Below, one piece after another: positions 4,407 to 37,193 of a DNA stretch of 39,763 bases. The stretch comes from a candidate division WWE3 bacterium RIFOXYD1_FULL_39_9. Its GTDB lineage: Bacteria; Patescibacteriota; WWE3; UBA101185; UBA10185. The translations under genes and the position numbers were made by a program. The notes under the pieces were generated by a model. It saw only the letters and a list, made by a program, of their open reading frames with translations. It was not told the DNA's origin and ran no database searches. The stretch lies in contig MEWG01000022.1 in assembly GCA_001773295.1 (NCBI GenBank), positions 1 to 39,763 on the forward strand, given 5' to 3'. Every line of letters begins with the position of its first letter. Within the stretch, counting starts at the first letter, position 1.

Positions 4407-4456
4407 ACAACTAAATTAACACAGAAGTTTATATTTTTAAGAAGGTTATATCTAGT

Positions 4457-6295: not shown

Positions 6296-6309
6296 GTATT
6301 CTTGGTTAA

Positions 6310-7514: not shown

Positions 7515-7518
7515 AGTG

Positions 7519-7992: not shown

Positions 7993-8103
7993 TACAAATA
8001 AAACCCGAAATTGTGATAAATTAGGCCAATCTGAACATCAAGACATTTCATCTAATGTCAGCATAAAATTTTGAAGAAAATATTTAGTTTTAAAGGGAAT
8101 TTT

Positions 8104-16483: not shown

Positions 16484-17701
16484 ATGTTAAAGTCGTACAA
16501 ATCGTTGTTCAAAATATCTCTAATAAGTACGGGTAATATTTTTAACTCCTTAATAGGCTTTGTCTATCTAACTGCCGCGGCAAAGTTTCTTACTCTTGAG
16601 GACTTTGGAAGATACAGTTTAATCACAAGTTTATTAGTTTCAATTTCGAAGCTTGTAGATTTTGGGACTAATTCTTTATTTGTTGCCAAATCTATCTCCA
16701 ATGAAGACAAAGAAATCTCGGACTTTTTTTATACTCTAAAAATTCTGCTGTTTTTTATAACTATTCCTATCTCGCTTCTCGCATTAAACATTCTTAAAGT
16801 TTTTGATCTTACAACATTTGTGCTTTTTGTTATCGGTTTAATTGCTTACACAATTAATTACACGTTTTATGCGATTTTTCAAAAAAACGAAAAATATGTT
16901 CAACTTATTTTGCTAAACACCATACCTGCAATTATTAAAGCTTTGTCAGCCGGTGGATTATTCTTAGGTCTGATCAAACCTGAAATAAATACACTTTTTG
17001 GAATTTTCGGTATGTCCATTCTGTCCAGTGTTCTGTTGCTACCGTTCATACCCAATAATTTAAGGAAATTTAAATTTCATGTCGGTAACTCAATTAAACT
17101 TCTAAGAGAGGCGCTCTCTCCGGGTCTTTCCTTGTTAATATATGAGGCCTGGCCGGCAATAAATAACGCTATTGCAAAGCTTTCAAGCGGTTTTGCAGAT
17201 GTTGGTGTATTTTCTTTGGCAAGTAAAATATCCAACGTGTTTTCCTTAATTTCTCTCTCGATATTTACAGTTCTGCTTCCAAAAAACGCTGAACGTAAAA
17301 GGGATAAACTTAGATATGACTTCAAAGAAACCATTTTATTATCAGTTCTTCTTTTAGTTCTTTCTTTTGCTGCAATTGTTGTCTCTGAATTGTTTATTCA
17401 AATTGTTTTTGGAAATAAATTTGAAGGCTCGCTTGGTTTGCTTGATATGTTAATTTTTGCAAGTGCGGTGACGGCAATTCAAAACTTTGTGGAAAATTAC
17501 TTTTATGTGGAGCAGCAGACAAAATATCTCGGTGGCATTAACACAACAAGATTACTTATGTTCCTTGTTTTTGCATTAGTACTAATTCCATCGTTACATT
17601 TAAAAGGACTTGCGCTTTCAAATCTTCTTTCAGCAATCATAGGAGTTGCAATCACCTCGCTAGTAATAAGGAAGTTAGAATCGAACCAACCCGCGATTTA
17701 G
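16484..17701 (+). CDS. wzx: Wzx-type polysaccharide flippase (MOP superfamily, Polysacc_synt-like)
   Basis: About 405 aa and hydrophobic throughout. The N-terminal pattern (SLISTGNIFNSLIGFVYLTAAAKFLTLEDFGRYSLITSL...DFGTNSLFVAKSI) is typical of O-unit flippases. The ORF track starts at TTG 16448; I prefer the ATG at 16484. Confidence 0.75.
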   Translation: MLKSYKSLFKISLISTGNIFNSLIGFVYLTAAAKFLTLEDFGRYSLITSLLVSISKLVDFGTNSLFVAKSISNEDKEISDFFYTLKILLFFITIPISLLALNILKVFDLTTFVLFVIGLIAYTINYTFYAIFQKNEKYVQLILLNTIPAIIKALSAGGLFLGLIKPEINTLFGIFGMSILSSVLLLPFIPNNLRKFKFHVGNSIKLLREALSPGLSLLIYEAWPAINNAIAKLSSGFADVGVFSLASKISNVFSLISLSIFTVLLPKNAERKRDKLRYDFKETILLSVLLLVLSFAAIVVSELFIQIVFGNKFEGSLGLLDMLIFASAVTAIQNFVENYFYVEQQTKYLGGINTTRLLMFLVFALVLIPSLHLKGLALSNLLSAIIGVAITSLVIRKLESNQPAI

Positions 17702-20556
17702 AATTTCACACCTGGGATTTTACCGGCTGCCTCTAATTCGGAAGGTAAATACCACAAAACCCAATCTCCATCTTCTTTTATAACAATCGGTTTATAACCA
17801 TATCCCTCAACCTTTTCACTATATCTGCCTTTCTTGGTCACTAGAATCAATCGCTCTGTTTCTTTAGCAACTTCCGGCACTCTCGATCCCACATCTGGTA
17901 CAAAATCGATAATCGTAAACGGGCTGTCAGTATAGAAAAGTGCCAACGGAACTTCAATTCTGTCTAGAAATACCTGTTCTTTAGTTCCAAAAACCTTGTC
18001 TTTATGTACCATTAGTCTGGCCTGTGAACCGGTTAAATCTGAGGTATAAACAAGCTTCCTATTCAAGAATAAGTAAAACAACGAAGAAACAGTAATCACA
18101 TAAATCAACAGTGCTTTTACAACAACAGAATCATACTTTGGATATCTTCTGAAAAACCAACTCATTGAGTCCGTAATAAATCTTCCAATAATAATAGCTG
18201 CTACCGGATATATCGGCGTGATGTACCACACAAGCTTGGATTGCGCAGCTGAGAAAAATGTAAAGACAAATATTAACCAGACTGCTAAGAATATTGAAAC
18301 GCGCTCTTTGTACTTTACGATCTTATAGAATAAGTAGACCAACGAAGGAATTAAAATTACAAACCATACTCTCATACTTACTTTCAACACAATCAAATAC
18401 CAATAAAACGGCCTGCCCTTATCTTCTATGGCACTAAATGCTCTGTCGAAAACGTGGTAGCCGATATAGTTATCTACAAAACTTACTCCGTAAAGCTGAT
18501 ACATTCTAATATGCCAAGGAAGTGCGATTGCTAAACTTCCGAGCAAAAATATGAGTAGTCCGTTAACGGCTGATCTATCAAACTTTTTGTTAATGATAAT
18601 TTGTACTAACTCAAATACAAAAACAACCGCAAATGGAATAAATCCGACTACGCCTTTTGTCATAACCGCTAATCCCATGAACAGACCTGATATTAGATAC
18701 GCTACCCACGCGCGCGACGGTTTCCAACAATAATACAAATAAAGTGCTGTTAGTATAAAAAAGCCGCAAGTTACGTCCAACATTGAAGCCCGTGAGTAAT
18801 ATAAAAATTGAGCTGTTGTTGCAATCGATAAAGCCGCAAGAAACGCCGATGTTTTATTAAAAATGCGTTTTGCGAAGATATAAGTAAAAACAATCGTTAA
18901 AATACCGAAAATTGCAGAAGGTAGCCTTACCGCTAAACTAGTGTATCCAAGCAGCTTCATAGATCCGGCAGCCATCCACATATATAAAGCAGGCTTCTCG
19001 TACCATTCCTTATCCGTCCACCATCTCTGAGTAATATAATCGCCCGTCGTGATCATGTTTTTGGCAATTTTTGAGTAGATTGCCTCATCCCAAGGTATGA
19101 GATGTGTGGAATTTAGCCCGATACCAATCAAAGTAACTGAGATAATCAAAATAGTAATGACTGCAAGTTTATTAGACCTTATGAATACAGATAAAACCTC
19201 TCTCAACGAAGATTGGGATTTCACAACGTTTAAGCCGTAAAGATAAAAAAGAACTATAACAATCCAAAAAAACTCTGAGTTAAATGAATAAAATATTCCA
19301 CCTATCATCCAGCCTATCAGAACAGAGAACATCGCAGTCGATAGAAGAGATTTTTCCAAGGTCTGACCGTGAAGCGCACCGTATAACAAAACTGCACTTA
19401 ACACAAAAATTAAGAGGGCGTACGTGGACAGTCCTAAGATACCTGTTTCTGCAATCAACTCTCCCCAAATTGTATGGGCAGGCACTCTTGTATTTAATCC
19501 GGCAGGATCTCTACTAAAATAAACTGGAGCAATTTTAGTTTTATTAAAATGTTCAAAAAAACCTCCGTACCCACCGCCCAAAATTGGATATGCTTCAAAT
19601 ATTTGGTATGTGCCGGTAAGTAACAAAATATGTGAATCAAAAGAATCAAGTCGATAGTGGAAATATTGTTTTACTTTCGCTCTAAAAGGACTAGCCTTAT
19701 TCATGTACTCAATAACAAGAGGAGTACTCATCAAAATCAGGGAGAGAATCACAAGACCGATACCTTTTAAGCCAATCTTCCTGTACAAAAATAAAGACAC
19801 AAAGACAATTAGAGCAACGGCGTCGATGATCCAAGCGGTTCTGGAATTTGTAAGAAGCAGGCTAACTACAAAAGATACCGAAACTACAGCAAAAAAAAGC
19901 TTGCTCTTAACCTTCCTTTCTGTAAGAACAAGAACACAGGCAATAGGTAATAAGGCAGCTAACAACGATCCGTAGTGATTAACATCCCAGAAAGTCGAGC
20001 CTATCCTTGGAATGTTACCAGGAATATTCCACAACGCGCCAATTATTTTTCCTGTCGTTTCGTATAAGAAATATTGGAAGTAACCGAACAAAGTCAGCAA
20101 AAATACAATGACTATATAAAACTTCAGATGTTTGAGAATAAGTTCCTGTCTTTCAGAATAAAAGTTTTTTAGATATACGGCTAAAACAACAACTGTAGAA
20201 AAAAACCCATATAATAGAACAGATGATTTGAGATTCCACGAAAAAAATATTGAAAGTCCCCGAATTGCCCACAGTAAAATTAGTAAAATCAAAACCGGGT
20301 CGTTCAACAGCTCTTTAACTTTGGCGATGTCTTTTTTTATAAAAAGTAAATACACCAACGTAGCAACTCCTGCGGCCAGAAGTGAAAACATAAAGGCTCT
20401 AATTGGCATAAGATCCCAAATAAAGAAACTAAACAGCTCTTTGTGAAGTAAAACCGAAAGAACAAACAAAACTAAAACAGCAATATCAAATCTTTTAACA
20501 ATCAGAATATAAGAGATGATGAATATTAGGGCTATTGAAACAATTTCTAGGTTCAT
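17698..20556 (-). CDS. fusion protein: N-terminal Wzy_C (O-antigen ligase/polymerase-like) domain plus C-terminal PMT_2/ArnT-like GT-C glycosyltransferase domain
   Basis: Residues about 1-450 (19210-20556) carry RIGSTFWDVNHYGSLL, TNSRTAWI, YPILGGGYGGF and AHTIWGELIAETGILG, the Wzy_C hallmarks. Residues about 460-952 (17701-19180) carry WDEAIYSKIAKNM..TGDYI...WYEKPALYMW...RLPSAIFG, the GT39/GT83 PMT_2 hallmarks. I verified that WDEAIY maps to 19075-19092. Confidence 0.8.
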   Translation of the reverse strand: MNLEIVSIALIFIISYILIVKRFDIAVLVLFVLSVLLHKELFSFFIWDLMPIRAFMFSLLAAGVATLVYLLFIKKDIAKVKELLNDPVLILLILLWAIRGLSIFFSWNLKSSVLLYGFFSTVVVLAVYLKNFYSERQELILKHLKFYIVIVFLLTLFGYFQYFLYETTGKIIGALWNIPGNIPRIGSTFWDVNHYGSLLAALLPIACVLVLTERKVKSKLFFAVVSVSFVVSLLLTNSRTAWIIDAVALIVFVSLFLYRKIGLKGIGLVILSLILMSTPLVIEYMNKASPFRAKVKQYFHYRLDSFDSHILLLTGTYQIFEAYPILGGGYGGFFEHFNKTKIAPVYFSRDPAGLNTRVPAHTIWGELIAETGILGLSTYALLIFVLSAVLLYGALHGQTLEKSLLSTAMFSVLIGWMIGGIFYSFNSEFFWIVIVLFYLYGLNVVKSQSSLREVLSVFIRSNKLAVITILIISVTLIGIGLNSTHLIPWDEAIYSKIAKNMITTGDYITQRWWTDKEWYEKPALYMWMAAGSMKLLGYTSLAVRLPSAIFGILTIVFTYIFAKRIFNKTSAFLAALSIATTAQFLYYSRASMLDVTCGFFILTALYLYYCWKPSRAWVAYLISGLFMGLAVMTKGVVGFIPFAVVFVFELVQIIINKKFDRSAVNGLLIFLLGSLAIALPWHIRMYQLYGVSFVDNYIGYHVFDRAFSAIEDKGRPFYWYLIVLKVSMRVWFVILIPSLVYLFYKIVKYKERVSIFLAVWLIFVFTFFSAAQSKLVWYITPIYPVAAIIIGRFITDSMSWFFRRYPKYDSVVVKALLIYVITVSSLFYLFLNRKLVYTSDLTGSQARLMVHKDKVFGTKEQVFLDRIEVPLALFYTDSPFTIIDFVPDVGSRVPEVAKETERLILVTKKGRYSEKVEGYGYKPIVIKEDGDWVLWYLPSELEAAGKIPGVKF

Positions 20557-24055: not shown

Positions 24056-25759
24056 TTATTCTAGCTCGCACCAGCTGCCTACATACGCCTTTTTCCCAAT
24101 TATAGAGTATAACGGAGAGAAATACATTTGGTTATACCTAAGCTCTTTTAAGTGTTTTTTAATCCTTTTGTCATCGATTAGTTTCTTGGCTTCATAGACT
24201 TTGGGATTTGGTATGAATTTTTCGATGGTCTTCTCAACCAAAATAAGCTGTTTTGTCAAAAACCAAGAGCCGTCGTCGGTGTAAGACTGGATATAACAAT
24301 CATATTCTAAACCACCCGGAATTGACTGTCCTATTCCTGTAAAATCATTTTGCTTTTTTGCTGCAAAATATTTAGTGTATGTGCCGTCTAGTTGAATCCC
24401 CAATACTATTCCGCTGTCTTGCTGAATTTTTAATGCTTGATCCCATCTCAGAGCCTGTACAGTCAGGTATTCGTAATTTAATGCAAGACTAATAAAAATA
24501 AGTAAAGCTAGACCGGTGTATGCTAATTTCGTAATTTTGAACTCTAGTTCTTTAGCATAAGTTGCCGAGATAATTAAAACCAGTACAAAAACCGGCAACA
24601 AGTATCTGTCGTACAGGTCTTTTGTAACAAGCAGCAGTAGAAACTGCAGAACGAGATTTACTAGATAAAAATTTGATGTTTTCCTGTTTTTTCCTAAGAT
24701 TTTTGTTCTATTCTTTGTAATCGTATGTATAAGCCCGACGGTTGAAATAATAATCAGCACGATCAAAAAAATTTTGAATGGCGAGTTATCAAAGATACTA
24801 AAATTACTCCTAAATCCGGATTTTGAATAAAGTTCCTCAATATAAAATACGTTTCCAAGCGGGAAAATGTCCAACAAGTAGACGTGTCTCCCTAAAACAA
24901 ACGTTACTAAGGCTGTCACAGCAATATAAACAAGCTGTCTGAATTTCTTGGTTTGTTTAACAATTTCTTTGAAAAATCGCAAATCACCCAAAAACAACGG
25001 AAGCGTAAAAAAAATAAGGTATATAAAGCTATATCCAATTTGTTGTAGCCGTGGAACAAAATCGTTAATTTCCAAAAAAAGCGCTCTACTGCTCTCGTCA
25101 GTACTACTATATCTTGGCCAAAATACCCAAATCAGTATAAAAATTAATCCGGCTAAAGATTTTACGATTAAATGCTTCCATCGTACCTTCTTTTCACCGG
25201 CAAAGTAAAAGTAAATTGCTACCGGAATCATTAAAGCAGCGCTTTGCCTGACAAGAAATGCTGCGCCGTTTAAAAGAACACCTAATAAAAAATGCGTATC
25301 AGATTTTTTTTGAAAACCTAGTTGGTAATAATACAACGATACAATTATCAGACACAGAAAATAGATCTCTGTCATAAAGGTAACTGATGAAGCAAGTACA
25401 ATGGGATTAAATGCGTACAATGCAACCAATAAAGAAATAAGTTTCTTGTTCTCTGTTAAAAGACTTAAAAGTTTAAAAAGGAAAACTACAGAAACTACAT
25501 ATACAACAAACGACAACAGATGAAGAGACTGAAAACTTAGCCCAAATATCTGCGACCAAACGTACCCTAAGAATCCTTGGAAGATGAACGCGGGCTCGAT
25601 CTGATGATTTATAATTATATTGCCATTTCGGAAGGATTCGACTTGTCTTGCAAACAGCCAATCGTCATTTATTGGAAAGTTACCTCGTCCCAATAAAAGG
25701 AACAGGAAAGTTGCTACAACAGCAAATAATGCTATTTTTGGGGTAAACATTGTGCGCAC
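24056..25759 (-). CDS. polytopic membrane protein, putative GT-C fold glycosyltransferase (family unassigned)
   Basis: 567 aa. TM1 is followed by an acidic loop (FPINDDWLFARQVE). There are many hydrophobic segments up to about residue 430, then a soluble tail of about 130 aa. This is ArnT/PMT-like architecture judged by eye only. The start is GTG 25759 or ATG 25750. Confidence 0.5.
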   Translation of the reverse strand: MRTMFTPKIALFAVVATFLFLLLGRGNFPINDDWLFARQVESFRNGNIIINHQIEPAFIFQGFLGYVWSQIFGLSFQSLHLLSFVVYVVSVVFLFKLLSLLTENKKLISLLVALYAFNPIVLASSVTFMTEIYFLCLIIVSLYYYQLGFQKKSDTHFLLGVLLNGAAFLVRQSAALMIPVAIYFYFAGEKKVRWKHLIVKSLAGLIFILIWVFWPRYSSTDESSRALFLEINDFVPRLQQIGYSFIYLIFFTLPLFLGDLRFFKEIVKQTKKFRQLVYIAVTALVTFVLGRHVYLLDIFPLGNVFYIEELYSKSGFRSNFSIFDNSPFKIFLIVLIIISTVGLIHTITKNRTKILGKNRKTSNFYLVNLVLQFLLLLVTKDLYDRYLLPVFVLVLIISATYAKELEFKITKLAYTGLALLIFISLALNYEYLTVQALRWDQALKIQQDSGIVLGIQLDGTYTKYFAAKKQNDFTGIGQSIPGGLEYDCYIQSYTDDGSWFLTKQLILVEKTIEKFIPNPKVYEAKKLIDDKRIKKHLKELRYNQMYFSPLYSIIGKKAYVGSWCELE

Positions 25760-27114
25760 GCCTTTGCTAGTAAACCCAATTTAACCATCACACGTCTGAC
25801 ATTAAATACTAGCTCAGAATCCTTAAGCGACCACAACCAAGAAGTATCGGTAAAACCTTTGTCGTACGCAGCGTGCCAAATTCCGTCAAAAAAGACGATC
25901 CCAAGTAGTTGAATGTAGACCGACAAACCTGCAATAACATAAAATACTTTTTTGTATTTTGTAAAATGATCAGACTGAACAAAAGGAACAAGAAGTAATA
26001 TTAGAAACGGAATTACATCGGAGCTCATGCGATAGCCAAAAGACCAGCCTCCGTACCAATGTTTCCAAAAACTAATTATCAAGGTATGTAGAAATACAGT
26101 TATCCCAAAAATCAAATATAAGTCACTTTTGGAATCTCTACGTCTTAGTCCCAGATAAAGTCCGATTAAAGAAAAAACAAACACAGGAGAGTAGGCTAAT
26201 ATTCCTTTACTTGGAGAAAACCAAACGCCAAAGAAACTTTCGGGAAAACCACCTAACCAGTTGGTAGTCAACTGAGATGAATAACCTTGGTTCGAAATAT
26301 CTCTATAAAATTTTGCGTTATACCAAAAGAAAAATCCTGCAACTAATAACAACCCTATCAAAAATAATATCCCCGGTTTAACAAGTTTCTTAAGGTTTGC
26401 GCGATATGTGAACAAGAAATGAGTGACTATTAGTATAATCGGCAGCCCGCCGGTTGGCCTGGAAAGAAAAGCCAAGCCAAAAAACAGTCCGGTAAATAGC
26501 ATGTGTGACGACCTAGAATCTTTAAGGTAATTTAAATAAAAGTATAGCCCAATAATTAAAAATAACTGTAAAGTACCGTGCTGCCACAAAGCCTGCGACA
26601 ACAGGGCATAATTTATGGTTCCGAATAGATATATGGCCGTTATAAGAAGAGCGTGGTAGTTGCTAGTTTCAAAGTGCTTCTTAAGCAAAAGGTACATAAA
26701 ACCGCCCGAAAACCCTACAATCAACGCCGCCGCTACATGCGAAAGAATAATCAAATTTCCCCATATCATGGGCAAATTTAATAACACGGGAAGCAGATAA
26801 ACCGGAACTGCAAGTATGGGCGTAATAATCGGAAATGCTGAAACGTAATGAGTGTCAACTTTCCTAAGGTAAAACGGAACCATGTTTCTCGTATAGCTCT
26901 TATCGTCTGGGTGCGGGTAGCTGCCTAACATAGTGGAATAATAATTGTCTAAATACAGGTCTCCCCTACTAATTATAGAGATAGGCAGGAATATGGCCGG
27001 AACTGTGTCTTCGGATTGAACTGCTAGCTTGTTTACACCGATCGAATAAACGAAAGCCCATGAAAGAAAATAAATTACCGATGCTGTGAGTGAAATTGCG
27101 AAGAAACGCCTCAT
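25732..27114 (-). CDS. polytopic membrane protein, putative GT-C fold glycosyltransferase (family unassigned)
   Basis: 460 aa. TM1 is followed by a loop with QSEDTVP...RGDLYLDNYY...HPDD. About 10 or more hydrophobic segments follow, including LSRPTGGLPI. Its C-terminus overlaps the next gene by 28 nt. Confidence 0.45.
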   Translation of the reverse strand: MRRFFAISLTASVIYFLSWAFVYSIGVNKLAVQSEDTVPAIFLPISIISRGDLYLDNYYSTMLGSYPHPDDKSYTRNMVPFYLRKVDTHYVSAFPIITPILAVPVYLLPVLLNLPMIWGNLIILSHVAAALIVGFSGGFMYLLLKKHFETSNYHALLITAIYLFGTINYALLSQALWQHGTLQLFLIIGLYFYLNYLKDSRSSHMLFTGLFFGLAFLSRPTGGLPIILIVTHFLFTYRANLKKLVKPGILFLIGLLLVAGFFFWYNAKFYRDISNQGYSSQLTTNWLGGFPESFFGVWFSPSKGILAYSPVFVFSLIGLYLGLRRRDSKSDLYLIFGITVFLHTLIISFWKHWYGGWSFGYRMSSDVIPFLILLLVPFVQSDHFTKYKKVFYVIAGLSVYIQLLGIVFFDGIWHAAYDKGFTDTSWLWSLKDSELVFNVRRVMVKLGLLAKACAQCLPQK

Positions 27115-27143: not shown

Positions 27144-28757
27144 TTATTCAATCCTTCTATATACATAAGCGGAAGGAAATTCAGCGACATTCTGCAGACT
27201 AATATTGTTTGAGAAAAACACACGCGCCTCGGCGGACAGATCTTCTTTGAAGACAACCAAATTCTCGCCGCCCAATTCGCTGAACTTCCCAAATCCTGAA
27301 GTTGTAGGTAGCTGACTTGTAAATTCACTATAGTCATAGTCAGACACTCGATAATCTACCGGATTTAGTAGAAGCTTATTGTGTTTTGGTAAAGTAAGTA
27401 GCGCGACCTCAGACTGAGCTCCCGGATAAACCGCAACTTTAGCGCATATGGGGACATTCTTGGACAAGTAATCATAAACTTCGGAACCGGCTGTTTCTTT
27501 ATATACAGTTACAGGTACAAATACTTCTGACAAAGTGAACAGCGCTAGAACTAATGTTAAAATTACTGCATTTCTTGGCTTCATCACGGTAAAGAAATAA
27601 TCAAAAACATATCCGGCCATCACAACAAGCGAAAATAACTGGAGAATAGACAATCTTGCCGTAACTCTAAACATCGGAAAAAGTTTAAATATAAGGTAAC
27701 CTGGAGTCCAAAACCTGATTCCGGATACGGTGAAGTATGGCGGGAGCATTAGAATAAAAAACAAAATATATAGTATTAAATAAATTTTTGCTTCTTTCCC
27801 TAAAATTGTGGGTTTCTTCGCCAAAAGATAAATAACGGTTATGAGTGTTACGAAACTAAAAAGCAGCCCAAAGTAATTTCCTGAATGCTCCTTCGCAAAA
27901 TAATCATCCGCTAAAAAATAATTAGTCTTGTACCCTATTTCTAGCGCATTTTTCGTAATTGAGCCAAACAACGGATTTTCTAAAGGAGGTAGAACGCTAT
28001 ACCATGGGCGCGCACTGAAAGTTATAAAATCCTCCAGAGGTCTTTGAACTCCTAGCGCAAAAAAACCATTTTGTCTTTCCGTATCATAATCAATGTATGT
28101 AGCCTTGAAGTACGGAAACAAAGTAATTAACAGCATAATAATTGACACAAGTATTGAGATGCTGAAACTTTTAATTTCCTTCAACAAATCAGCTTTTGAT
28201 TTCAATCCAAATGAAACATTTAGAAAGGTATAAAGTGAGTAATAAACAAAGAGAAAGAATCCATAATAATTTGAAATTACACCTACAAGAAATATAAATA
28301 GTCCTGTTTTAACACTGTGTAAGTATGGGATCGATCCGTGTTTGTTACTTTTTTGTAGCAATATATACATTGCAGGAAAAACCCACAACTGAGACAGATC
28401 CAAATGCTTCCCCATATGTATCCATGCGTACGATGAAAAACTAAATAGAAGTGCTAAAGCTAATCCCGCCTTAAATTTTCTAAGGGCTAAGTAAGTAACA
28501 ATAAAATTGGCTAGTAAAGTCAATAATACGAAAACATTGAACACGCCTGATCCAAAAATTGTCAGAAGAACCGAGTTAACTAAATTATATAAGGGCTGAC
28601 TGGTCAAGAGCGGGTGCTGAAACCCCCAAAACATATTTGAATATAAAGGGTAATCCTGTAAACACTCTTCGGTTATTTTAAATAAAGGACCTGATATACC
28701 GCCCCAAACGTAATTTGCTAGCTGATCATCCAGCCCACCTATCAGAAAATTCAACAT
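27144..28757 (-). CDS. polytopic membrane protein, possibly a distant YfhO/AftD-type GT-C relative
   Basis: 537 aa with GGAG 6 nt upstream of the ATG. It starts with a non-hydrophobic segment of about 55 aa containing GGLDDQLANYVWG. Many TMs follow, then PMFRVTARLS (an FR..R motif also present in the two giants) and a soluble C-terminal region of about 130 aa. Confidence 0.4.
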   Translation of the reverse strand: MLNFLIGGLDDQLANYVWGGISGPLFKITEECLQDYPLYSNMFWGFQHPLLTSQPLYNLVNSVLLTIFGSGVFNVFVLLTLLANFIVTYLALRKFKAGLALALLFSFSSYAWIHMGKHLDLSQLWVFPAMYILLQKSNKHGSIPYLHSVKTGLFIFLVGVISNYYGFFLFVYYSLYTFLNVSFGLKSKADLLKEIKSFSISILVSIIMLLITLFPYFKATYIDYDTERQNGFFALGVQRPLEDFITFSARPWYSVLPPLENPLFGSITKNALEIGYKTNYFLADDYFAKEHSGNYFGLLFSFVTLITVIYLLAKKPTILGKEAKIYLILYILFFILMLPPYFTVSGIRFWTPGYLIFKLFPMFRVTARLSILQLFSLVVMAGYVFDYFFTVMKPRNAVILTLVLALFTLSEVFVPVTVYKETAGSEVYDYLSKNVPICAKVAVYPGAQSEVALLTLPKHNKLLLNPVDYRVSDYDYSEFTSQLPTTSGFGKFSELGGENLVVFKEDLSAEARVFFSNNISLQNVAEFPSAYVYRRIE

Positions 28758-28772
28758 GTTACTCCAGTAAGC

Positions 28773-29015
28773 TTAATTAACATATTTTGTCAATTTATCC
28801 TCGCCTAATTTGGTAATAAATAACTCGATAACAGTAAGTGTAAAAAAGAAAAATATAACAGACCCGGTAGTCTCGGCAGCTGATACATTGCCGCTAGCAA
28901 TAAAAAGTATTGTAAGGACTATAAAGAACACTTCCATAAAATACGGTACTAATTTTATGTCCTCGTACTTCCTTCTCGTCACAATGTATACGACCGTTAA
29001 TATTAATTCAATCAA
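28773..29015 (-). CDS. small membrane protein (2-3 TM), weakly similar to the 119-aa ORF at 31980-32339
   Basis: 80 aa from TTG 29015 (TTGA overlap with the 995-aa stop). The alternative ATG (MEVFF...) would give 54 aa. It is hydrophobic with a K/D-rich tail. Coding status is inferred from position and similarity only. Confidence 0.45.
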   Translation of the reverse strand: MIELILTVVYIVTRRKYEDIKLVPYFMEVFFIVLTILFIASGNVSAAETTGSVIFFFFTLTVIELFITKLGEDKLTKYVN

Positions 29016-31999
29016 CTTCTTCTCCTATAAAGAATATATACAAATAATACACCAGCCAAAACCGAACTACCTGCGAATAAAACAGTGTTTAAAATATCCG
29101 GCCAGAATACAATTGCGTAGTAACCACTATCGATCTTTGATAGATCCCAGCCGTTAGAGTAACTTTCAATGTTTACGTGCTCGGCAAAATGCTTGTCACC
29201 AAACAAAAGTTTTGCAGAGTAAATGCCTCTGATAAATTCCGGCATTTCTCTATATCTTGTAAGGTCGTCTCTTGAGATTAGCACAAGGCTCCAGTTCGGG
29301 TCGTACGCATCTTTAAACTGCAGATACCCTTCCGTTGCACCCTTCTTGTCAATTTCGATCAAACCCATGCTTTGACTAGCTCTGGAATAGTCGACAATAT
29401 TTGGTTTTGCCGGTTCGCCTTGCGATTCTTTTTGCACCATCATGATCAGTTTTGCAGTTGTCATATCCTTATATGCAAATGCCCTTACCCCCACTTTTGA
29501 AGGTTTAAATTCACTTTGTGGATTAATTAAGTAAGGCGAGATTCTTATATAATAATCGGGATCCTCTAACGGGTTGCGTATAACTGCGGAGATATAGTTA
29601 AAATGAATTGCATCTGTGCCTGCTGGAATAACTGCGTCGCCGTATGAAGTCTCTACTCCGGAGTCAACATCTCTGTGAATAATACTCAACAAGATATCCA
29701 GATTTATTCTTTCACCAAAATCTATTCCAATATCATAAGTCCTAGATGGATCGAACCATGATATCTTATTGTAATATTTTGATACCTTTGTTTTGAACAT
29801 TAAACTGTTTGGATCTGTTACATCGTCTGAGTCTCTAAATAAACCGGTTTCTGTATATATCCAATTGTTCTTAATATATTCCGGTTTCTTAATTTCATTT
29901 GTGTAAACTTCAAGTTTCTTGCAACACTCGGGCTGGTCAAACATAAATGATAATTCTTTTGATGGCTTTTCTAAATTTCCGTCTAATGTTACTGAAGTAA
30001 GCTTAATATCCTCAGTGCTTGGAATAATCCTTCCGAAATACTTTCCGGAAGTAAATTTACTTAAATCAAAAACGTACTCGGTTGCTTTCTCAAAATCATA
30101 AGTCACTACCGGCTCTATCACTTCTATTTCAAAAGGAGTTTTGGATGTATATGAAAACTTTAAGTCAACACCAAATGTATCTTTCAATATTTCATACTCC
30201 TTTGGCGTTAACTGTTTACTTGAAAATATATTGCCGGCAGGTACTATCTCAACGTCAGAAACATCTTTTTCAGTCTCGTGTATTGTTATTTTACCCTTTT
30301 CTATTGCCGGCTCGCTTTGGTAAAGATCCTTCAGTTTTTTCATGTAACCTGCAAAACCTGCGTACCCCGCATCGCCCTGAATTATTAGTCCCGACAATTT
30401 GTATGTCTGCGCTATGCTATTAAATTTTTCCGGCGATTCTAATAACGACTTATTTATGTACGCGGTGACAGAGTCTATACCCGAATTGCCAAAAATTAAC
30501 GGTGCCCTTGAAATTATGTTTACTCCTTTAAATAATATATAAGGACTTCCGTTATACCCGGATGGCCATTTAAGATACTCCGATACTTGAAAAGTCGGGT
30601 ATAGAACATAGTAACCTTTCTTTGGTTCCCAGTTTTCCCTAAGATCTTCCCAGTAATCCGGAACAATTACGGTTTGAGAGCTAATTTTTTTATTTTCAGT
30701 CTCGCCTACTACTTCTGCAGACCAATAAGGTCGTCCAAGAGCTACTCCTGAAATTATTAAAATGACAAACAGAAGTATCCGCAAAAAATTACGTGACTTT
30801 AATTCAGTGCTGATTTTAATTAAAGTGTATACAAGCAACGTGTCCCCGATAAGAGCGTAGACCGGCATGAACTTTGCATAAGGCTCTCTAAAAAACCAAA
30901 AGAGAGGTACGTTATCGTAAAAAAACCCAAAAATCGACCCCCCAAAGCCAGATATACCTTTTGCAAGAAGGATAAAAAGCCAGGCCATGCCGACCAAAAA
31001 TAAAAGAAATTCACTTTCAGAATTTTTTTCACGTTTCTTTATCTGTTTGATGAGAAAAAACGGAACTCCTGCTATAAGCAAAAAAGGCAGGAATCGCGCC
31101 GCAACTAACGGAAAGCGGTCGTAATTTTTATAATAAGGAAAATAGTAAATTTCCTCTGTTGCTTTTTCTCTAAAAGCCCAGCTTCCGAAATAAGTAAGAA
31201 CATCCTGAGTTTTCGACGCAGCGATAGTTACAAAATTTGATGTGGTCCCTTTTATATCCCCAACGTTTGTTCGTATTTTCATCACAAATGGCACAGCCCA
31301 CCAAATGTTTAGCAAAGACGACAGTACAATAAAAAACATAAAGTGAAGCAGAAGGTTCCTAAAATTAGTACGGATGAACACATTTTTATAAACTATACCC
31401 AATGCAATGACAATGAATATTATCGATCCGTATGGAATATTTACATACAAAGGTGACACAAAAAATGTAATAAGTGATAGTGCTGCAATGATCTTGTAAC
31501 CACCTTGATCCTGAATAATATATTTGTGGAGCAATGCAAAAATAAGAGGTAAAAACATAAAAAGTATTCTTGGAGGAGTTAGAAGGACTGAAATGTTTAA
31601 GAAAAAAGGATTGAAAACATAGAAAATAATTGCAATTACTGCGATTAACGGAGACATTTTTTCCCTATAAACCTGCTTTATAAATAGATAAAAGAAAAGT
31701 CCTGTAATTACCCAGGCTAAAACATGCCAAGAGACCAACGCATAATAATAATTTATATTTAGGATCTCGAAAAGATGAAAAAATAGATACTGCAGTTTGA
31801 AGGGTAAAAACAGACTAAACTCACCGAAATTTACATTTGGAGCCCATCCCTGTGTATATATTTTTCCCCACATCCCGTAGTCCAGCGCATAAAACTCTTC
31901 CCCTGTTATTAGATGCCCGTGAAACCACAATAATGGAGTAAGTCCGGTCAGTAATATTGCACAAAGCGGCAGAATAAATTTACTTATCTTTGTTAGCAT
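29012..31999 (-). CDS. giant membrane protein, AftD/DUF3367-like GT-C architecture (paralog of 32323-35880)
   Basis: 995 aa. An N-terminal block of about 420 aa has many TMs, with a first loop ITGEEFYALDYG...QGWAPNVNFGEF and later FFREPYAKFMPVY. A soluble region of about 520 aa starts at VPDYWEDLRENW. The protein ends HVNIESYSNGWDL... plus one C-terminal TM (VLFAGSSVLAGVLFVYILY). Confidence 0.6.
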   Translation of the reverse strand: MLTKISKFILPLCAILLTGLTPLLWFHGHLITGEEFYALDYGMWGKIYTQGWAPNVNFGEFSLFLPFKLQYLFFHLFEILNINYYYALVSWHVLAWVITGLFFYLFIKQVYREKMSPLIAVIAIIFYVFNPFFLNISVLLTPPRILFMFLPLIFALLHKYIIQDQGGYKIIAALSLITFFVSPLYVNIPYGSIIFIVIALGIVYKNVFIRTNFRNLLLHFMFFIVLSSLLNIWWAVPFVMKIRTNVGDIKGTTSNFVTIAASKTQDVLTYFGSWAFREKATEEIYYFPYYKNYDRFPLVAARFLPFLLIAGVPFFLIKQIKKREKNSESEFLLFLVGMAWLFILLAKGISGFGGSIFGFFYDNVPLFWFFREPYAKFMPVYALIGDTLLVYTLIKISTELKSRNFLRILLFVILIISGVALGRPYWSAEVVGETENKKISSQTVIVPDYWEDLRENWEPKKGYYVLYPTFQVSEYLKWPSGYNGSPYILFKGVNIISRAPLIFGNSGIDSVTAYINKSLLESPEKFNSIAQTYKLSGLIIQGDAGYAGFAGYMKKLKDLYQSEPAIEKGKITIHETEKDVSDVEIVPAGNIFSSKQLTPKEYEILKDTFGVDLKFSYTSKTPFEIEVIEPVVTYDFEKATEYVFDLSKFTSGKYFGRIIPSTEDIKLTSVTLDGNLEKPSKELSFMFDQPECCKKLEVYTNEIKKPEYIKNNWIYTETGLFRDSDDVTDPNSLMFKTKVSKYYNKISWFDPSRTYDIGIDFGERINLDILLSIIHRDVDSGVETSYGDAVIPAGTDAIHFNYISAVIRNPLEDPDYYIRISPYLINPQSEFKPSKVGVRAFAYKDMTTAKLIMMVQKESQGEPAKPNIVDYSRASQSMGLIEIDKKGATEGYLQFKDAYDPNWSLVLISRDDLTRYREMPEFIRGIYSAKLLFGDKHFAEHVNIESYSNGWDLSKIDSGYYAIVFWPDILNTVLFAGSSVLAGVLFVYILYRRRS

Positions 32000-32339
32000 T
32001 TTCCGATTCAGGTTTATCGAAAATCAACTCACGCGTCCTTTCGATGACCAGAAATATTAAAAAGTAAAAAACTATTACAGAAAAGTTCGCACTGGCAAAG
32101 TCTCTTCCTATCATTAAGAAGAAGGGCATAAATAAGACAAAAATAACACCAAATACAATCAGAGCCTTACCTTCAGAATCAATTTTCCTACCGGACAGAT
32201 ACCATAATATAAATAACACTAATTGAACTACTTCCAGAGGTGTCCTAACAAAAACCGACAACGCAATTAAGAAGATGGTCAGAAAAGAAAATATTACAAA
32301 ATTAAATTTTTCCACTTGTATCTTAGTTTTTGTCAGCAT
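31980..32339 (-). CDS. small membrane protein (about 4 hydrophobic segments), unknown function
   Basis: 119 aa. Its start overlaps the 1185-aa gene by 17 nt and its end overlaps the 995-aa gene by 20 nt. It is hydrophobic with a K/D/N-rich tail. Residues about 40-119 align colinearly with the 80-aa ORF. Confidence 0.55.
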   Translation of the reverse strand: MLTKTKIQVEKFNFVIFSFLTIFLIALSVFVRTPLEVVQLVLFILWYLSGRKIDSEGKALIVFGVIFVLFMPFFLMIGRDFASANFSVIVFYFLIFLVIERTRELIFDKPESENANKDK

Positions 32340-35300
32340 TGTTTTTTCTTAATTTATTAAATACGGTAACCCAGATAAGATATAACGCACTCAAACCAAT
32401 TATTGCAGTTGAAATTACTATTCCTATGTAAAATAATCTCTGAGCATTAAATTCAACGATTAATTCTAACTTTCCGTCCTTTGCATATTCGTCAGAAATT
32501 AGCCAGCCATTAGAAAAGCCGTTGGCAATGTAGTGCTTATCGGACGCAACTTTATCGAGCCCCACAGTCTCAAAGAGTTCCCCTAATATCGACGTCTTAC
32601 TTAAAATATTTTCTTCATGTCTATATAACTGCCACTCCTTACTAAAACTTTCACTGAAAACTAAGTAGAACGGACTCTGAATATCTGTGATATTTAATTT
32701 GTACTTAGTTGGATTTATAGAAATAAACTCTATCTTTGGCGTATGTATCTTAGCTTGGTTACTTGCATTAAATTTTCTTATGATTATTTTTGGATCGGGG
32801 ACTTTTTGGACTTTAATATTTTTTATCTCTATATCGCTAAAATTATTTTTACCCGAAAAACCATAAATAAACAAATATCCGTTCACAGTATCTTCCGATG
32901 ATGTAAAAGTTTTTTTATAGGTACTCCAACCATCATTGTTTGGCGAAATGACTGACACATCTCTATCGATAACTGCGTCAAACAAAATCTTTCTCACAGT
33001 CGGGATTTGTTCTATATCCAGGATTTTTTTCTCCTTGGATTTCCCGACTATATCCTCGACTAAAGCTATCGCTGCTTTTCCGCTGTTGAGTTTGTAGTCA
33101 AAAGATACTGCATATCTGGTATTTGAAATCCAACTGTCAATTCTTTTGTATTTTGACGGCTGGGCCCCAAAAAGCTGAGGTCTTAACTTAATACCACTCG
33201 TGTCTTCTTCGAATGTTTTGTACTCTAGCCACTCTTCTCCGATAAGAAGGTTTGGAGTTTCATGGAATTTTATATTTAATCTAACAGGAGTTCCCGGCTC
33301 AAATTCAAAACTTCCAATTTGGATAAAATTTCCATTAACTTGACCCAAGGAGTTTAACTCAACAGTACGAACGACTTCGTTACCGTTATTTGTTACCACA
33401 GTTAATTTATCAATTGTATGATTAGGAACATTCTTATCGAAACTCTTGTTATCAATGAGAATGTCGTACTTATCTGGTTTATTAACTGTGAATCGGTAAC
33501 AAAAATCTGAGCAATTTTTATCAGATATCTCGCTAGCCCACTCTTGGAATTTCTTAAGAGAGTTTGCAAAAAGCTCTCTAAGTTTTGGGTCTGTTCCATA
33601 TTCAGAATAGTGTCTTAATAAGTAGGATTGAGTAGTTGTTACTAATCCTTTGTACATTCTTCCTCTTGCTTCAGTAGGTATCCCAGACAACATCTCTATT
33701 GTTTCATCTAAACTCGAGGTGTACGCAGCCACACTTTCATGGCTGTCGATCAAATTATACTTGCTCAATTCGTAGGCACGTTTGTTAAGATGTATAAGTT
33801 TTAACTGAATTTTTCTTATCGGGTTCTTCTCCTTTGCTAAAGATAGCTCCTCTTTAATCACCCTTAGCCGGTATTGAATAGTGTATGGGTTGTAGTCAGC
33901 GGCAGGTGATTTCCAGTCAGTTGACCAAAATCCTTCTATCGACAGATCCATCGGAGATATCTCCTCGACAGGATAGTAGATATAATCAATGTCAGTTTCA
34001 TTCAAAACACCTGCTGACTTTCCCAACACAAACTGCTGGTTCACAGAGTAATCATCGAGAGAGAATATATACGGCAAGGCGGCAATCTTTCCGTTGATTA
34101 CTTTTGTTCTCTCGGGAGCATAAAAAACCGGTAAAGTGTGAGCACTATCTATCTTGTACATTTTAATAAAATCATTTTCAAAATAGCTGTGAATTAGATT
34201 CTGACGCTCCAGTTCCTCCATCTTTGAACCTGACTGCACAATAAAACCATCTTCCACATCAAAGTGGTAGATAATGTCCGATACATTAAAGTACGGAAGC
34301 ATTCTTACATACCAGATCGGAGGAATATTTAGAGTATTTAAGCTTTGAGTCGGGTTAAAATCTTCTAAGACATACATTGAAGAATTCTGGGCTATAGTCG
34401 GTCTATTGAAATAATTCTCAGTTGGATTTACACCAATTAACTTCCACTTTGGGTAATTAACCCAGGCTATTGTATTGAGCGGACTATGTGGCAATGCCTG
34501 TAACTTAGTTACCGTTGGGTCTGAATTTACAATATCATAGACATCCTTATACGCATCTGGAACTTTCACAAGACCTGAAAAATCGGCGGTCAGATAATCC
34601 TCCTTTTTGGCAAAATTGATTGAGTAAACCTTCTGGATACCGCCAATATAAAAAGGAAGCGGAGCAGTTGAAATAAACAAGATAAAAATTAAAAATATCG
34701 CACTATTTTTTAAACGTTCCGGGATAAAACCATACAAGGAAGTAAGAAATACGAAGGGCATAAATATGGCAACTTTTTCATAACTCCTTAAAGCCGGAAT
34801 AAATGGAATTTTGAATAATAGCATGGAGAGATCTCCAAAAGGGGGCTGGCTCTTTTTAAGCAAAAGCATAAAAATTACACCCACCAAAAGTATTGAGATC
34901 GAAAGTTTGTGACTCTCGTCTTTTATTTTTCTTTGGGAGGTCAAGAATATAAGTAGCATGGCTATCGGCAGGAATCCAACTACGTACCAGATCTTGAAAC
35001 CATATTTCACAGGGAAAAAGTCCGGGTAGCGCTGCATTCCCATATAAATCGAGAGTAAATCCGCAGATTGCGAATCAAGCCAGCTCTTAAGGTCAAAAAC
35101 TCCACTCACAAGACTTGTAATACCCTCATTCACAAATACCAGCGTCGGCATCAACCAGACACAAATTACTAGCAACGACGTAATGCCTAGCGCCAGTAAT
35201 GAGGCGATAAACTTCTTTGTGACCTTTACCAAACCTGTCAAAAGTAACGCTAGAGTAAAAAGTCCCATAAAGATCACTAATGCGAAGAAAAACGCACTAT

Positions 35301-35880
35301 TACCGAATCCGACCATCGAAACACCTAATAATATAAGGTAGACTGCTAAACTCTTTAAGTTTGGGGACCTTAAATACTTATAAAAATAGGCAATAAGCAA
35401 GGGTAAAGGTATATATAAAAAAACCTGATGTGAAAACCCCCAAGTATAAGTAAAAAAATAAAGGGTAGTCAGATTTAACGCGTACAAGAGTGAAAAAAAA
35501 GACTGAAGAAGTGGTTTATCTTTACCGAACAGTATCCTCAACATCCAAAAAAACGATACGTAGGATAAAAAAAGGAACATGCTAAAAACAAAGGAAAGTA
35601 TCTGAGAGTCGGTAAGTCCTGCCATTGACGGTAATAAGTATAAAAATAGGTAGTAGGGCAAAGTCGGATACCAGCTGAAAAAACCTCCCTCGCCGCCTGC
35701 GCCTATCCTATTATTCCAAGTGTAATAAATGTGATGGAAAATGTTCTTTATGTTTACCGGCTGAGCGAAATCACCGCTTGTGTAAATGTAGCCCTCAGGA
35801 AACGTATTAACAAGCGTTACCCACGCCAATAATAATACCGGAATTAAAATTAACAATTTTTGATATCTTTTTAAGCCCAT
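32323..35880 (-). CDS. giant membrane protein, AftD/DUF3367-like GT-C architecture
   Basis: 1185 aa. An N-terminal block of about 420 aa has many TMs, with a first loop YTSGDFAQPVN...YTWNNRIGAGGEGGF and later ALRSYEKVAIFMPF. A soluble region of about 720 aa starts at VPDAYKDVYDIV. The protein ends HYIANGFSNGWLI... plus one C-terminal TM (LFYIGIVISTAIIGLSALYLIWV). Confidence 0.6.
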   Translation of the reverse strand: MGLKRYQKLLILIPVLLLAWVTLVNTFPEGYIYTSGDFAQPVNIKNIFHHIYYTWNNRIGAGGEGGFFSWYPTLPYYLFLYLLPSMAGLTDSQILSFVFSMFLFLSYVSFFWMLRILFGKDKPLLQSFFSLLYALNLTTLYFFTYTWGFSHQVFLYIPLPLLIAYFYKYLRSPNLKSLAVYLILLGVSMVGFGNSAFFFALVIFMGLFTLALLLTGLVKVTKKFIASLLALGITSLLVICVWLMPTLVFVNEGITSLVSGVFDLKSWLDSQSADLLSIYMGMQRYPDFFPVKYGFKIWYVVGFLPIAMLLIFLTSQRKIKDESHKLSISILLVGVIFMLLLKKSQPPFGDLSMLLFKIPFIPALRSYEKVAIFMPFVFLTSLYGFIPERLKNSAIFLIFILFISTAPLPFYIGGIQKVYSINFAKKEDYLTADFSGLVKVPDAYKDVYDIVNSDPTVTKLQALPHSPLNTIAWVNYPKWKLIGVNPTENYFNRPTIAQNSSMYVLEDFNPTQSLNTLNIPPIWYVRMLPYFNVSDIIYHFDVEDGFIVQSGSKMEELERQNLIHSYFENDFIKMYKIDSAHTLPVFYAPERTKVINGKIAALPYIFSLDDYSVNQQFVLGKSAGVLNETDIDYIYYPVEEISPMDLSIEGFWSTDWKSPAADYNPYTIQYRLRVIKEELSLAKEKNPIRKIQLKLIHLNKRAYELSKYNLIDSHESVAAYTSSLDETIEMLSGIPTEARGRMYKGLVTTTQSYLLRHYSEYGTDPKLRELFANSLKKFQEWASEISDKNCSDFCYRFTVNKPDKYDILIDNKSFDKNVPNHTIDKLTVVTNNGNEVVRTVELNSLGQVNGNFIQIGSFEFEPGTPVRLNIKFHETPNLLIGEEWLEYKTFEEDTSGIKLRPQLFGAQPSKYKRIDSWISNTRYAVSFDYKLNSGKAAIALVEDIVGKSKEKKILDIEQIPTVRKILFDAVIDRDVSVISPNNDGWSTYKKTFTSSEDTVNGYLFIYGFSGKNNFSDIEIKNIKVQKVPDPKIIIRKFNASNQAKIHTPKIEFISINPTKYKLNITDIQSPFYLVFSESFSKEWQLYRHEENILSKTSILGELFETVGLDKVASDKHYIANGFSNGWLISDEYAKDGKLELIVEFNAQRLFYIGIVISTAIIGLSALYLIWVTVFNKLRKNNADKN

Positions 35881-37193
35881 CTTATTCCGCTTTCCCGAGC
35901 TATCTTTTCCAGAACAGGTAAAAAGGCTTTTTTATAGTCCAGCTCTGACGAAAAGTCCAAAACCCCCGATTTCAACCTTTTATATAGGATATCATCTGTA
36001 AGGCATCTGACAACAATATCAGCAAGTATTTTAGGGTCATTTTCTCCCATTAAACCGGCGTTTTTGGACTCAATAATTGATCCGACCAAGGGACCGCCTT
36101 TAGTCATTAGAACCGGTATTCCAAGTTTTATGTACTCTTTAGGCTTAGAGGGTTCGGAAAATAAAGAAACGTTATCCGCTTCTGGTCTATAAAGCGCTAA
36201 CCCTAGTTTTGCAGGTAAAAGTAATCTTTGGGCATCTTGCATGTCCGGAACATAGCCAAAAAACTCTACGTTAGCTTCAATTCCTAAGTCTTCTGCCATT
36301 TTCTTATATTTTTCTACGGTTAGGGAACCGCCGCCAACCACTAAAAGTCTTATATCAGGGAGCTGTCTTTTAACCTCTTTTACGGTTTGAAGCGACATGT
36401 CCATTCCGGCGTTGGAGTCCAGTCTGCCGATATACGCAAGCACATTACCATCTCTATGATATCCAGAGTATTTAATAACTTCTTCACTCTCTAATAATAT
36501 CGTTGGGGAAACAATAGAATCTCTGTTTTCAAAACCATGATCCAAATCCCATTTTTTACATATCTCACTTGGATACCAAACAAGATCGTTTTTTTCGCCC
36601 AGACTTCGTAACAAATACTGTATTCTGATAAAAAATCTGTCGACTTTTAATAGTAATTTCTGAGCCACCTTTTTTCCGAAGCCGGCGTCAGAATTTGGCC
36701 CAGAAGATATCTCAAAGTAAAAAGGTTTATTGCTATTTAAAGATGGCAAAGCGTCTCCGTTCATATAAACACTGTACTTAACTATTCCCAGTAATTTTAA
36801 GGCATACATTACAGCTGAACCGAACTGAGTCTCACCGATACCAACATCAAATTTTTTGTCATCGCTTTTTAACAGCAAAACAAATAAAAATATAATATTC
36901 AAAAAATATTGAAAGGCGAAAACTAAAAATAACGGAAATGGGAACCAAACGGAAAAGTTAAAATCTTTCCTTGTACCATCCGAATTAATAACAAACGATT
37001 CCATCAAAAACCGATTTTTCATCGGTCTTACCGATGGTAATTTAAAAATAGTAAAGTTAGCTAATTCGTTTTCCCTTACATATTTTTCAAGGTAGTTTAA
37101 CGGGGGAGTGCCATAAAAATTTACTAAATATAGAAATGAAGGTTTACGTGACTCTTTTACCTCATGCAGGCTGTCTTTAAGTTCATTTGTCAT
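35871..37193 (-). CDS. membrane-associated GT-B-like glycosyltransferase
   Basis: 440 aa. A hydrophobic segment (VWFPFPLFLVFAFQYFLNIIFLFVLLL) lies in the N-terminal half. The C-terminal half has LLVVGGGS...FFGYVP... and PSKPKEYIKLGIPVLMTKGGPL (the group-1 K..EY..G.PV motif). Confidence 0.65.
   Translation of the reverse strand: MTNELKDSLHEVKESRKPSFLYLVNFYGTPPLNYLEKYVRENELANFTIFKLPSVRPMKNRFLMESFVINSDGTRKDFNFSVWFPFPLFLVFAFQYFLNIIFLFVLLLKSDDKKFDVGIGETQFGSAVMYALKLLGIVKYSVYMNGDALPSLNSNKPFYFEISSGPNSDAGFGKKVAQKLLLKVDRFFIRIQYLLRSLGEKNDLVWYPSEICKKWDLDHGFENRDSIVSPTILLESEEVIKYSGYHRDGNVLAYIGRLDSNAGMDMSLQTVKEVKRQLPDIRLLVVGGGSLTVEKYKKMAEDLGIEANVEFFGYVPDMQDAQRLLLPAKLGLALYRPEADNVSLFSEPSKPKEYIKLGIPVLMTKGGPLVGSIIESKNAGLMGENDPKILADIVVRCLTDDILYKRLKSGVLDFSSELDYKKAFLPVLEKIARESGIRWA

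Follow-up and report, generated by a model that had tools for sequence, protein, structure and literature searches.

AftD, the mycobacterial arabinofuranosyltransferase (PDB 6W98, 6WBX and 6WBY; PF11847, formerly DUF3367), is the best structural match of two very large proteins described here. Both are encoded in contig MEWG01000022.1 of the candidate division WWE3 bacterium RIFOXYD1_FULL_39_9 (assembly GCA_001773295.1), a stretch of 39,763 nucleotides (nt) hereafter called the window, and the gene of a small membrane protein directly follows each of them. In AftD, transmembrane (TM) helices 1-11 form the GT-C glycosyltransferase fold and the chain re-enters the membrane by TM12, followed by a cytoplasmic loop and then by TM13-16, a four-helix bundle set apart from the rest, after which the chain ends on the cytoplasmic side (bioRxiv 10.1101/2019.12.22.885152). 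D41 and K361 are essential, TM13-16 binds the phosphopantetheine arm of the acyl carrier protein (ACP), and truncation before TM13-16 abolishes function (bioRxiv 10.1101/2019.12.22.885152). The described partners of AftD are ACP/AcpM, on TM13-16, and TmaT, in the TmaT-AftD complex. They show that AftD works together with bound proteins and needs its C-terminal membrane domain to function. ACP is soluble and cytoplasmic, and TmaT, a large acyltransferase, has a fold of its own; unlike the small proteins of the window, neither is a small membrane protein whose gene directly follows that of the enzyme.

GT-C enzymes depend on a lipid-linked donor that has first been flipped. ArnE/ArnF, which are SMR/EamA-like, and GtrA (PF04138) are small proteins of about 110-130 amino acids (aa) with four TM helices. 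Their genes lie next to that of the GT-C enzyme, in many cases with an overlap of start and stop codons, and flipping of such a donor is the presumed function of both. In eukaryotes, Ost4-type subunits of oligosaccharyltransferase, with one to few helices and no operon shared with the enzyme, pack on the transmembrane domain of STT3. The window resembles arnT-arnE-arnF and GtrA/GtrB/GtrC in that the gene of a GT-C enzyme is followed by that of a small polytopic membrane protein, and it resembles oligosaccharyltransferase in the pairing of a small membrane protein with a GT-C catalytic subunit. However, the small proteins, here called S, match neither the ArnE/ArnF nor the GtrA family, occur also in a three-segment form of 71-82 aa and in an enzyme-fused form, and have no sequence relationship to Ost4-type proteins. 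The four genes at issue are the following.

32323-35880, minus strand: G1, an AftD-like GT-C glycosyltransferase of 1185 aa
31980-32339, minus strand: S1, a small membrane protein of 119 aa, putative cognate partner of G1
29012-31999, minus strand: G2, an AftD-like GT-C glycosyltransferase of 995 aa, an ancient paralogue of G1 without the helical insertion
28773-29015, minus strand: S2, a small protein of 80 aa with a TTG start, putative cognate partner of G2

The order of 1185, 119, 995 and 80 aa with an overlap at every junction, as first read from the DNA, is borne out: G1 and S1 overlap by 17 nt, S1 and G2 by 20 nt, and G2 and S2 by 4 nt (TTGA), the start of S2 sharing this TTGA with the stop of G2 and having an AGGAG 6 nt upstream. 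The G+C content is 33-39% across the region. We propose that these genes form two ancient modules, each of a giant and an S protein, within a surface-glycan locus of the Wzx/Wzy type, and that S docks on its giant as a subunit, preferably as the counterpart of AftD TM13-16; taken as a whole, we hold this to be the probable reading.

The assignment of the giants comes mainly from their predicted structures. AlphaFold2 models from merged alignments reached a predicted local distance difference test score (pLDDT) of 84 and a predicted template-modelling score (pTM) of 0.81 for G2, and 81 and 0.76 for G1. Foldseek against the PDB returned AftD 6w98 as the top match for both (E 6.4e-16 for G2 and 1.1e-15 for G1, probability 1.0, template-modelling score on the query 0.46-0.47), with the AftD entries 6w98, 6wby and 6wbx leading both lists and the next GT-C structures, PglB, STT3, AftA, ArnT and EmbC, ten orders of magnitude weaker; the structural alignments with AftD have about 9-10% identity. 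Judged by the models, the giants are thus of the GT-C fold, an N-terminal bundle of about 11 TM helices with an adjoining extracytoplasmic alpha/beta domain, as originally predicted, with AftD the closest solved structure, and no unrelated family took its place. The sequence evidence is of another kind. Neither giant matches PF11847 (GT-C_AftD) even at E <= 0.1, Pfam and NCBIfam gave sub-threshold noise only for G1, G2, S1 and S2 (Golvesin_C, PigN, DUF3784), and searches of PDB sequences with the single sequences and with G1-family, G2-family and merged-giant profiles found no AftD and nothing meaningful. Relatives do match: PF11847 is found in 3 of 12 G2-family members (best E 2.3e-6), the relative P0029 carries a PF11847 annotation, and another, P0073, scores 46 bits at a cut-off of 26 (P-numbers denote proteins of relatives and L-numbers their loci). 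Because relatives match PF11847 but G1 and G2 do not, the link of the giants to AftD is transitive and structural, and their designation as AftD/DUF3367-like holds for fold, top structural match and relatives, while the direct sequence match is missing.

The overall layout of the giants follows AftD. Like AftD, they have an N-terminal GT-C TM domain, an extracytoplasmic region with beta-sandwich or carbohydrate-binding-module (CBM)-like domains and a one-helix return to the membrane; a conserved acidic residue in the first loop may be a further point in common. Unlike AftD, they are shorter and have no four-helix bundle TM13-16 in cis, the gene of a small protein standing in its place, and G1 carries a helical, DUF5667-like insertion. 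In G1, the multi-TM GT-C domain at the N-terminus is joined to a large alpha/beta domain outside the cytoplasm, the helical insertion, the beta-sandwich domains and a single TM helix at the C-terminus; in both models several beta-sandwich domains of the large extracytoplasmic region precede the single C-terminal helix. CBM structures are among the Foldseek matches of both giants, and the relative P0016 has a CBM_4_9 match. The parts that bear on the comparison are these.

35770-35772, minus strand: codon of G1 D37, the invariant acidic position of extracytoplasmic loop 1, D in 19 of 19 G1-family sequences
31895-31897, minus strand: codon of G2 E35, the invariant acidic position of extracytoplasmic loop 1, E in 11 of 11 G2-family sequences
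33526-33879, minus strand: G1-specific helical insertion of five helices, residues 668-785 (model secondary structure, hhalign gap)
32356-32439, minus strand: single C-terminal TM helix of G1, residues about 1148-1175 (hydropathy; model helix 1145-1184)
29027-29086, minus strand: single C-terminal TM helix of G2, residues about 972-991 (hydropathy, model)

The C-terminal TM helix of G1 is the positional equivalent of AftD TM12, and exactly one such helix is present in all 21 giants tabulated from loci. The invariant acidic residue lies about 12 residues past TM1, and by this position G1 D37 is a candidate counterpart of AftD D41. In the 30 sequences, K342/K347, R365/R371 and E368/E372 (G1/G2) are also invariant or nearly so; AftD has the conserved basic residues K39 and K361 near its active-site cavity, and the correspondence of the residues of the giants to those of AftD is positional only.

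By BLASTP, the similarity of G1 to G2 is marginal (E 0.01 and 0.026). Alignment of the family profiles by hhalign, however, gave a probability of 99.9% and E 4.2e-31 over 832 columns at 15% identity, from residues 82-1127 of G1 and 75-965 of G2, and on this profile evidence the two are true but very old paralogues, in line with the homology first suspected from shared motifs. These motifs are colinear: the pairs ALRSYEK/FFREPYAK, VPDAYKD/VPDYWED and NGFSNGW/ESYSNGW all lie within aligned columns, and MAFFT pairs G1 D37 with G2 E35 in the first loop. A difference of about 200 aa between the soluble regions had also been noted; the size gap is real (about 190 aa) and mostly due to the five-helix insertion of G1, absent from G2, while the differing specificities that it suggested may or may not follow. 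The insertion site scores as DUF5667 in the relatives P0015-P0017. Among 5.8 billion clusters searched, G1 has 19 homologues and G2 has 11, all unnamed; most genomes in which their relatives occur belong to Patescibacteria (Saccharibacteria, WWE3, Berkelbacteria, Paceibacterota), and the window protein itself is also present in the metagenome-assembled genome (MAG) GCA_036817025.1. More distant relatives (27-30% identity) were seen in MAGs labelled Magnetomicrobium (Nitrospirota), Pseudomonadales and Bathyarchaeota (L013, L015, L016), the giant of L016 being seemingly split across three frames.

The small proteins are homologous as well. S1 and S2 are 22% identical over 64 aa by BLASTP (E 0.001), and their family profiles align by hhalign with E 5.4e-6 and a score of 35.3 over 65 columns. 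None of 400 shuffled controls reached this score, the maxima being 17.9 for 200 column shuffles and 22.2 for 200 block shuffles, with 12.6-12.9 for reversed alignments. The colinear homology claimed at the outset is therefore upheld overall, although the third of the proposed motif pairs, in the C-terminal tails, is meaningless, since the tails are unconserved in either family. S1 has four predicted TM segments, and its charge distribution fits an N-in, C-in topology for the S1 type. S2 has three hydrophobic segments, the first one short, and corresponds to S1 minus its first TM, that is, minus the first 40-50 residues.

Short hydrophobic frames in AT-rich DNA may be open by chance, and the TTG start of S2 and the uncalled state of one orthologue could be taken in that sense. 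Comparison with relatives speaks strongly for real genes. In each close-relative locus whose sequence continues past the giant, the next gene is an S-type open reading frame (ORF): one of the S1 type (110-126 aa) after G1-type giants (L001, L008/L033, L010, L011, L034, L038, which is partial, and L040) and one of the S2 type (71-82 aa) after G2-type giants (L002/L003/L018/L019, L020, L026, L035, L036, L037). L037, whose G2 is 54% identical, shares the order of the window from S1 through G2 and S2 to the gene of a 537-aa membrane protein, and its S2 orthologue has an ATG exactly at the position of the window TTG. Between the window and L037, the proportion of nonsynonymous differences (pN) is 0.28-0.30 and that of synonymous differences (pS) 0.74-0.87 for S1 and S2, and the same holds for G2 and the 537-aa gene; pN and pS are given here because the synonymous distance (dS) is saturated. 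The uncalled orthologue is a 77-aa S2-type ORF at L036 4195-4428, with a GTG start and an 8-nt overlap with the stop of the giant, missing from the deposited MAG annotation. Position and sequence are thus kept over many loci under purifying selection, the Shine-Dalgarno site of S2 is ideally spaced, and 134 representatives among 1.84 billion proteins match the S profile at E <= 0.001. These data refute the chance-frame explanation, to which we give practically no weight, and confirm that the small ORFs are conserved and coding. S as a frameshift or readthrough extension of the giant was also considered. The junctions vary between loci (overlaps of 4, 7, 8, 17 and 20 nt, and one 13-nt gap), the frames are not the same and S2 comes with a Shine-Dalgarno site of its own, so that readthrough is rejected as the general case.

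The S proteins belong to a family of their own. A word-indexed search with the S profile gave 5 matches only and an exhaustive search was needed to recover the 134 proteins, mostly of 70-140 aa. S1 and S2 can be aligned with 31 further members, and the family hidden Markov model scores 89 bits for S1 and 62 bits for S2. The core of about 65-75 aa starts with a short helix, carries SR-x3-5-AL-x-FL-x2-CP in the next helix, has an outward loop with A-E, and closes with a last helix AYxFLVxGV ending in E-Y-x-R-E; S2, the more divergent, has kept the AE loop and lost the CP motif. In the 33 members, no consistent Pfam or NCBIfam model was found. The family is undescribed, present neither in curated libraries nor in the searchable literature.

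It is conceivable that S is a small flippase or carrier of the polyprenyl-phosphate-sugar donor, feeding the giant as ArnE/ArnF or GtrA would feed theirs, and the 119 aa, four predicted TM segments and position of S1 directly after its giant recall these proteins. However, none of the 33 S members has a match to GtrA, SMR/EamA or any transporter family in Pfam or NCBIfam at E <= 0.05, the S2 type has three segments in only 71-82 aa, S is found fused to the C-terminus of an enzyme and also in proteins without a glycosyltransferase, and the window already has a Wzx-type flippase. We therefore regard the flippase explanation as quite improbable.

The link between S and giant is seen in several comparisons. 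Distances among the giants and among their small proteins co-vary (Mantel r 0.67, reached in 0 of 5000 permutations), and they do so within each type. P0042, an S match picked regardless of giants, is encoded 3 nt downstream of a 1243-aa protein that belongs to the giant superfamily. The window has two S genes, no more, and two AftD-like giants; its PMT_2-type GT-C genes and Wzy_C-PMT fusion are without S. Furthermore, P0073 (L039 293-3334) joins in one frame a PF11847-positive giant, one TM, a 45-aa linker and an S module of four segments. We regard S as very probably a physical subunit or partner of its giant. In other lineages, direct tandems of two AftD-like giants with no S between them were also observed (L012 5992-10699, L028 5821-10986, L024 and L025); in L012 and L028 an S gene or S-containing protein comes after the second giant.

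A different explanation is that S is a general small membrane module, such as a scaffold, an insertion or assembly aid or a regulatory sensor, for large cell-surface proteins, and that it accompanies the giants as big envelope proteins, not as GT-C enzymes. Indeed, S modules are also found inside larger proteins with LytR_C (P0057, P0069, P0143), TIG (P0061) or an unnamed beta domain, and within proteins of 606 aa in L015, 366 aa in L028, 456 aa in L039 and 371 aa in L030; P0052 is encoded just upstream of, and overlapping, the gene of a 1203-aa S-layer protein; and the S profile has no match to AftD. The pairing described above runs against this: the count of two S for two giants in the window, next to PMT_2-type and Wzy_C-PMT genes that have none, the complete pairing among evaluable close relatives, the co-varying distances, and the in-frame fusion that mirrors the 1+4 helix layout of AftD. 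On balance, the general-module explanation seems rather unlikely to us.

Multi-TM proteins with one or two S modules and an unnamed extracytoplasmic beta domain (L015 11709-13529, L028 10990-12090, P0038, P0061) share in that domain the motif LRF...W.Y...Y.TDQF...FPFGFP, often have a C-terminal IPT/TIG domain and lie near AftD-like giants. In L039, the 456-aa protein (3956-5326) has a second S module at its C-terminus and is neighboured by a TIG-like 191-aa protein and two PMT_2 genes. In L042, P0052 (3618-3875, 85 aa) overlaps the start of the S-layer gene (PF07752), on a contig that has UbiD and PIN genes.

We return to the proposal that S is the subunit of its giant. The giants end after one helix, S1 has four segments and P0073 fuses the two, and from these facts we suggest that S provides the TM13-16 bundle in trans. 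In such a mechanism, the giant would use a polyprenyl-phosphate-linked sugar at the external face of the membrane to extend a cell-envelope glycan, by analogy with known GT-C enzymes, while its beta-sandwich, CBM-like ectodomains, as modelled, might hold the acceptor. S would be translationally coupled to the giant through the overlap of start and stop codons, dock on it within the membrane and, as the trans-encoded counterpart of TM13-16, stabilise or gate the GT-C transmembrane domain. The donor, the acceptor and a difference in specificity between G1 and G2 are parts of this proposal that we state conditionally.

Several observations weigh against the proposal, above all against the bundle equivalence. 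Besides the missing PF11847 match of G1 and G2, the S profile finds no match among PDB sequences, AftD included; since S has no similarity to AftD, the equivalence with TM13-16 rests on position, helix count and topology, and S2-type proteins have three hydrophobic segments against the four expected of a bundle. No S was found near the distant giants in the loci L013, L014 and L016. P0073 is a singleton in the protein collection, from a single metagenome contig of 8.9 kb, and a stop codon lost through a mistake of sequencing or assembly could account for its fusion. Finally, the S modules in LytR_C and TIG proteins and upstream of an S-layer gene mean that S is not exclusive to AftD-like enzymes. 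We therefore put forward the structural equivalence of S and TM13-16 tentatively, as a possibility somewhat short of even chances. It is about as tentative, if not slightly more so, that AftD-like enzymes were ancestrally of two subunits and that S is a free-standing TM13-16, a widespread, separable regulatory module that envelope proteins associated with LytR_C, TIG and S-layers have recruited as well.

How the two modules came to lie together can be judged from their neighbours, listed here with the gene upstream of G1.

27144-28757, minus strand: 537-aa polytopic membrane protein, no match in Pfam/NCBIfam
25732-27114, minus strand: 460-aa GT-C enzyme of the PMT_2 / LA_3751 type
35871-37193, minus strand: GT4-type (Glycos_transf_1) cytoplasmic glycosyltransferase, overlapping the start of G1 by 10 nt

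The homology of S1 and S2 and the co-variation of giant and S distances make a two-gene ancestor that duplicated the simplest reading, and as judged by these comparisons the modules are two anciently diverged paralogous two-gene units. The shared ancestry set out in the original prediction is thus retained; a tandem duplication at this site is not, as the modules are separate elsewhere and no DNA-level repeat exists between them. Specifically, G1-S1 occurs alone in L001, L034 and L040 and G2-S2 alone in L003, L035 and L036, while in L008/L033 two genes lie between them. In relatives, the usual gene after G1-S1 is a homologue of the 537-aa gene (L033_535, 32% identity, E 8e-77 by BLASTP; L001_595; L034_603), and the usual gene after G2-S2 is a homologue of the 460-aa PMT_2 gene (about 50% identity to L003_462 and L035_473). 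The order in the window is G1-S1-G2-S2-537-460, so G2-S2 seems to be set inside a G1-type cluster. As each module has its own downstream neighbour in other genomes, the adjacency looks secondary, two modules having been brought together, and not the product of local tandem duplication. A recent tandem duplication in this lineage, suggested by the adjacent giant-S-giant-S order on one strand with overlapping junctions, is contradicted by the 15% identity of G1 and G2, the lack of a DNA repeat, orthologues of each with 30-54% identity in other Patescibacteria, where the modules stand alone or two genes apart, and the presence of both type-specific downstream neighbours in the window; its probability is very small indeed. 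The conservation of 537-aa homologues right after G1-S1 suggests that the G1 module may have this protein as a third member.

The wider surroundings are those of a surface-glycan locus, which extends from about 12.3 kb of the window to its end. Besides the 537-aa protein and the four genes from G1 to S2, it contains an initiating Bac_transf enzyme, a DUF4012 protein, a Wzx-type flippase and about nine GT4 enzymes. Two PMT_2-type GT-C enzymes, a Wzy_C-PMT fusion of 952 aa, a methyltransferase and an asparagine-synthase-like gene are also part of it. A GT4 gene directly upstream of the giant, as in the window, is also found in L002/L003, L033, L034 and L035. The 952-aa protein (17698-20556, minus strand) combines Wzy_C (O-antigen ligase/polymerase) and a PMT/PMT_2 GT-C domain in one chain, and a similar fusion is present in L002. 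The 655-aa DUF4012 protein (10279-12246, minus strand) adjoins the initiating Bac_transf enzyme (12305-12949). Near its start, at 3022-9453, the window carries a plus-strand LCP (LytR_cpsA_psr) ligase gene together with genes of a PBP2-type transpeptidase and a class II tRNA synthetase and with mraW and mraZ, and the glycan locus thus adjoins genes of cell division and the cell wall. A bacterium of the Patescibacteria is not expected to make arabinogalactan or lipoarabinomannan. No genes of the pathway to decaprenyl-phosphate-arabinose (DPA), the donor for the alpha-(1->3/1->5) arabinofuranosyl transfer of AftD, were found among the window genes scanned.

The giants are distant new members of the AftD-like GT-C enzymes, and the S partner, the S family and the split and fused architectures are absent from curated libraries and from the searchable literature, in which AftD was not found together with Patescibacteria and the DUF3367 mention found there was unrelated. 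That a dedicated small partner of AftD-like enzymes had gone undescribed, as originally supposed, agrees with this, ACP and TmaT being partners of a different kind. A fold and a likely role are hereby assigned to two unannotated giants of a sort typical for Patescibacteria, whose cell envelopes are poorly understood, and an uncurated family of small membrane proteins is defined by at least 134 cluster representatives, in loci where the small ORF after the giant gene is sometimes missed by annotation, as in L036. AftD is an essential cell-wall enzyme of mycobacteria, and its helix bundle is needed for function in a role that is poorly understood. In the genome studied here, a bundle-like module occurs as a protein of its own, in two diverged copies and with translational coupling to the enzyme, and one relative has it fused to the enzyme; such a naturally split AftD-like enzyme would offer a clean genetic and structural handle on the bundle module.

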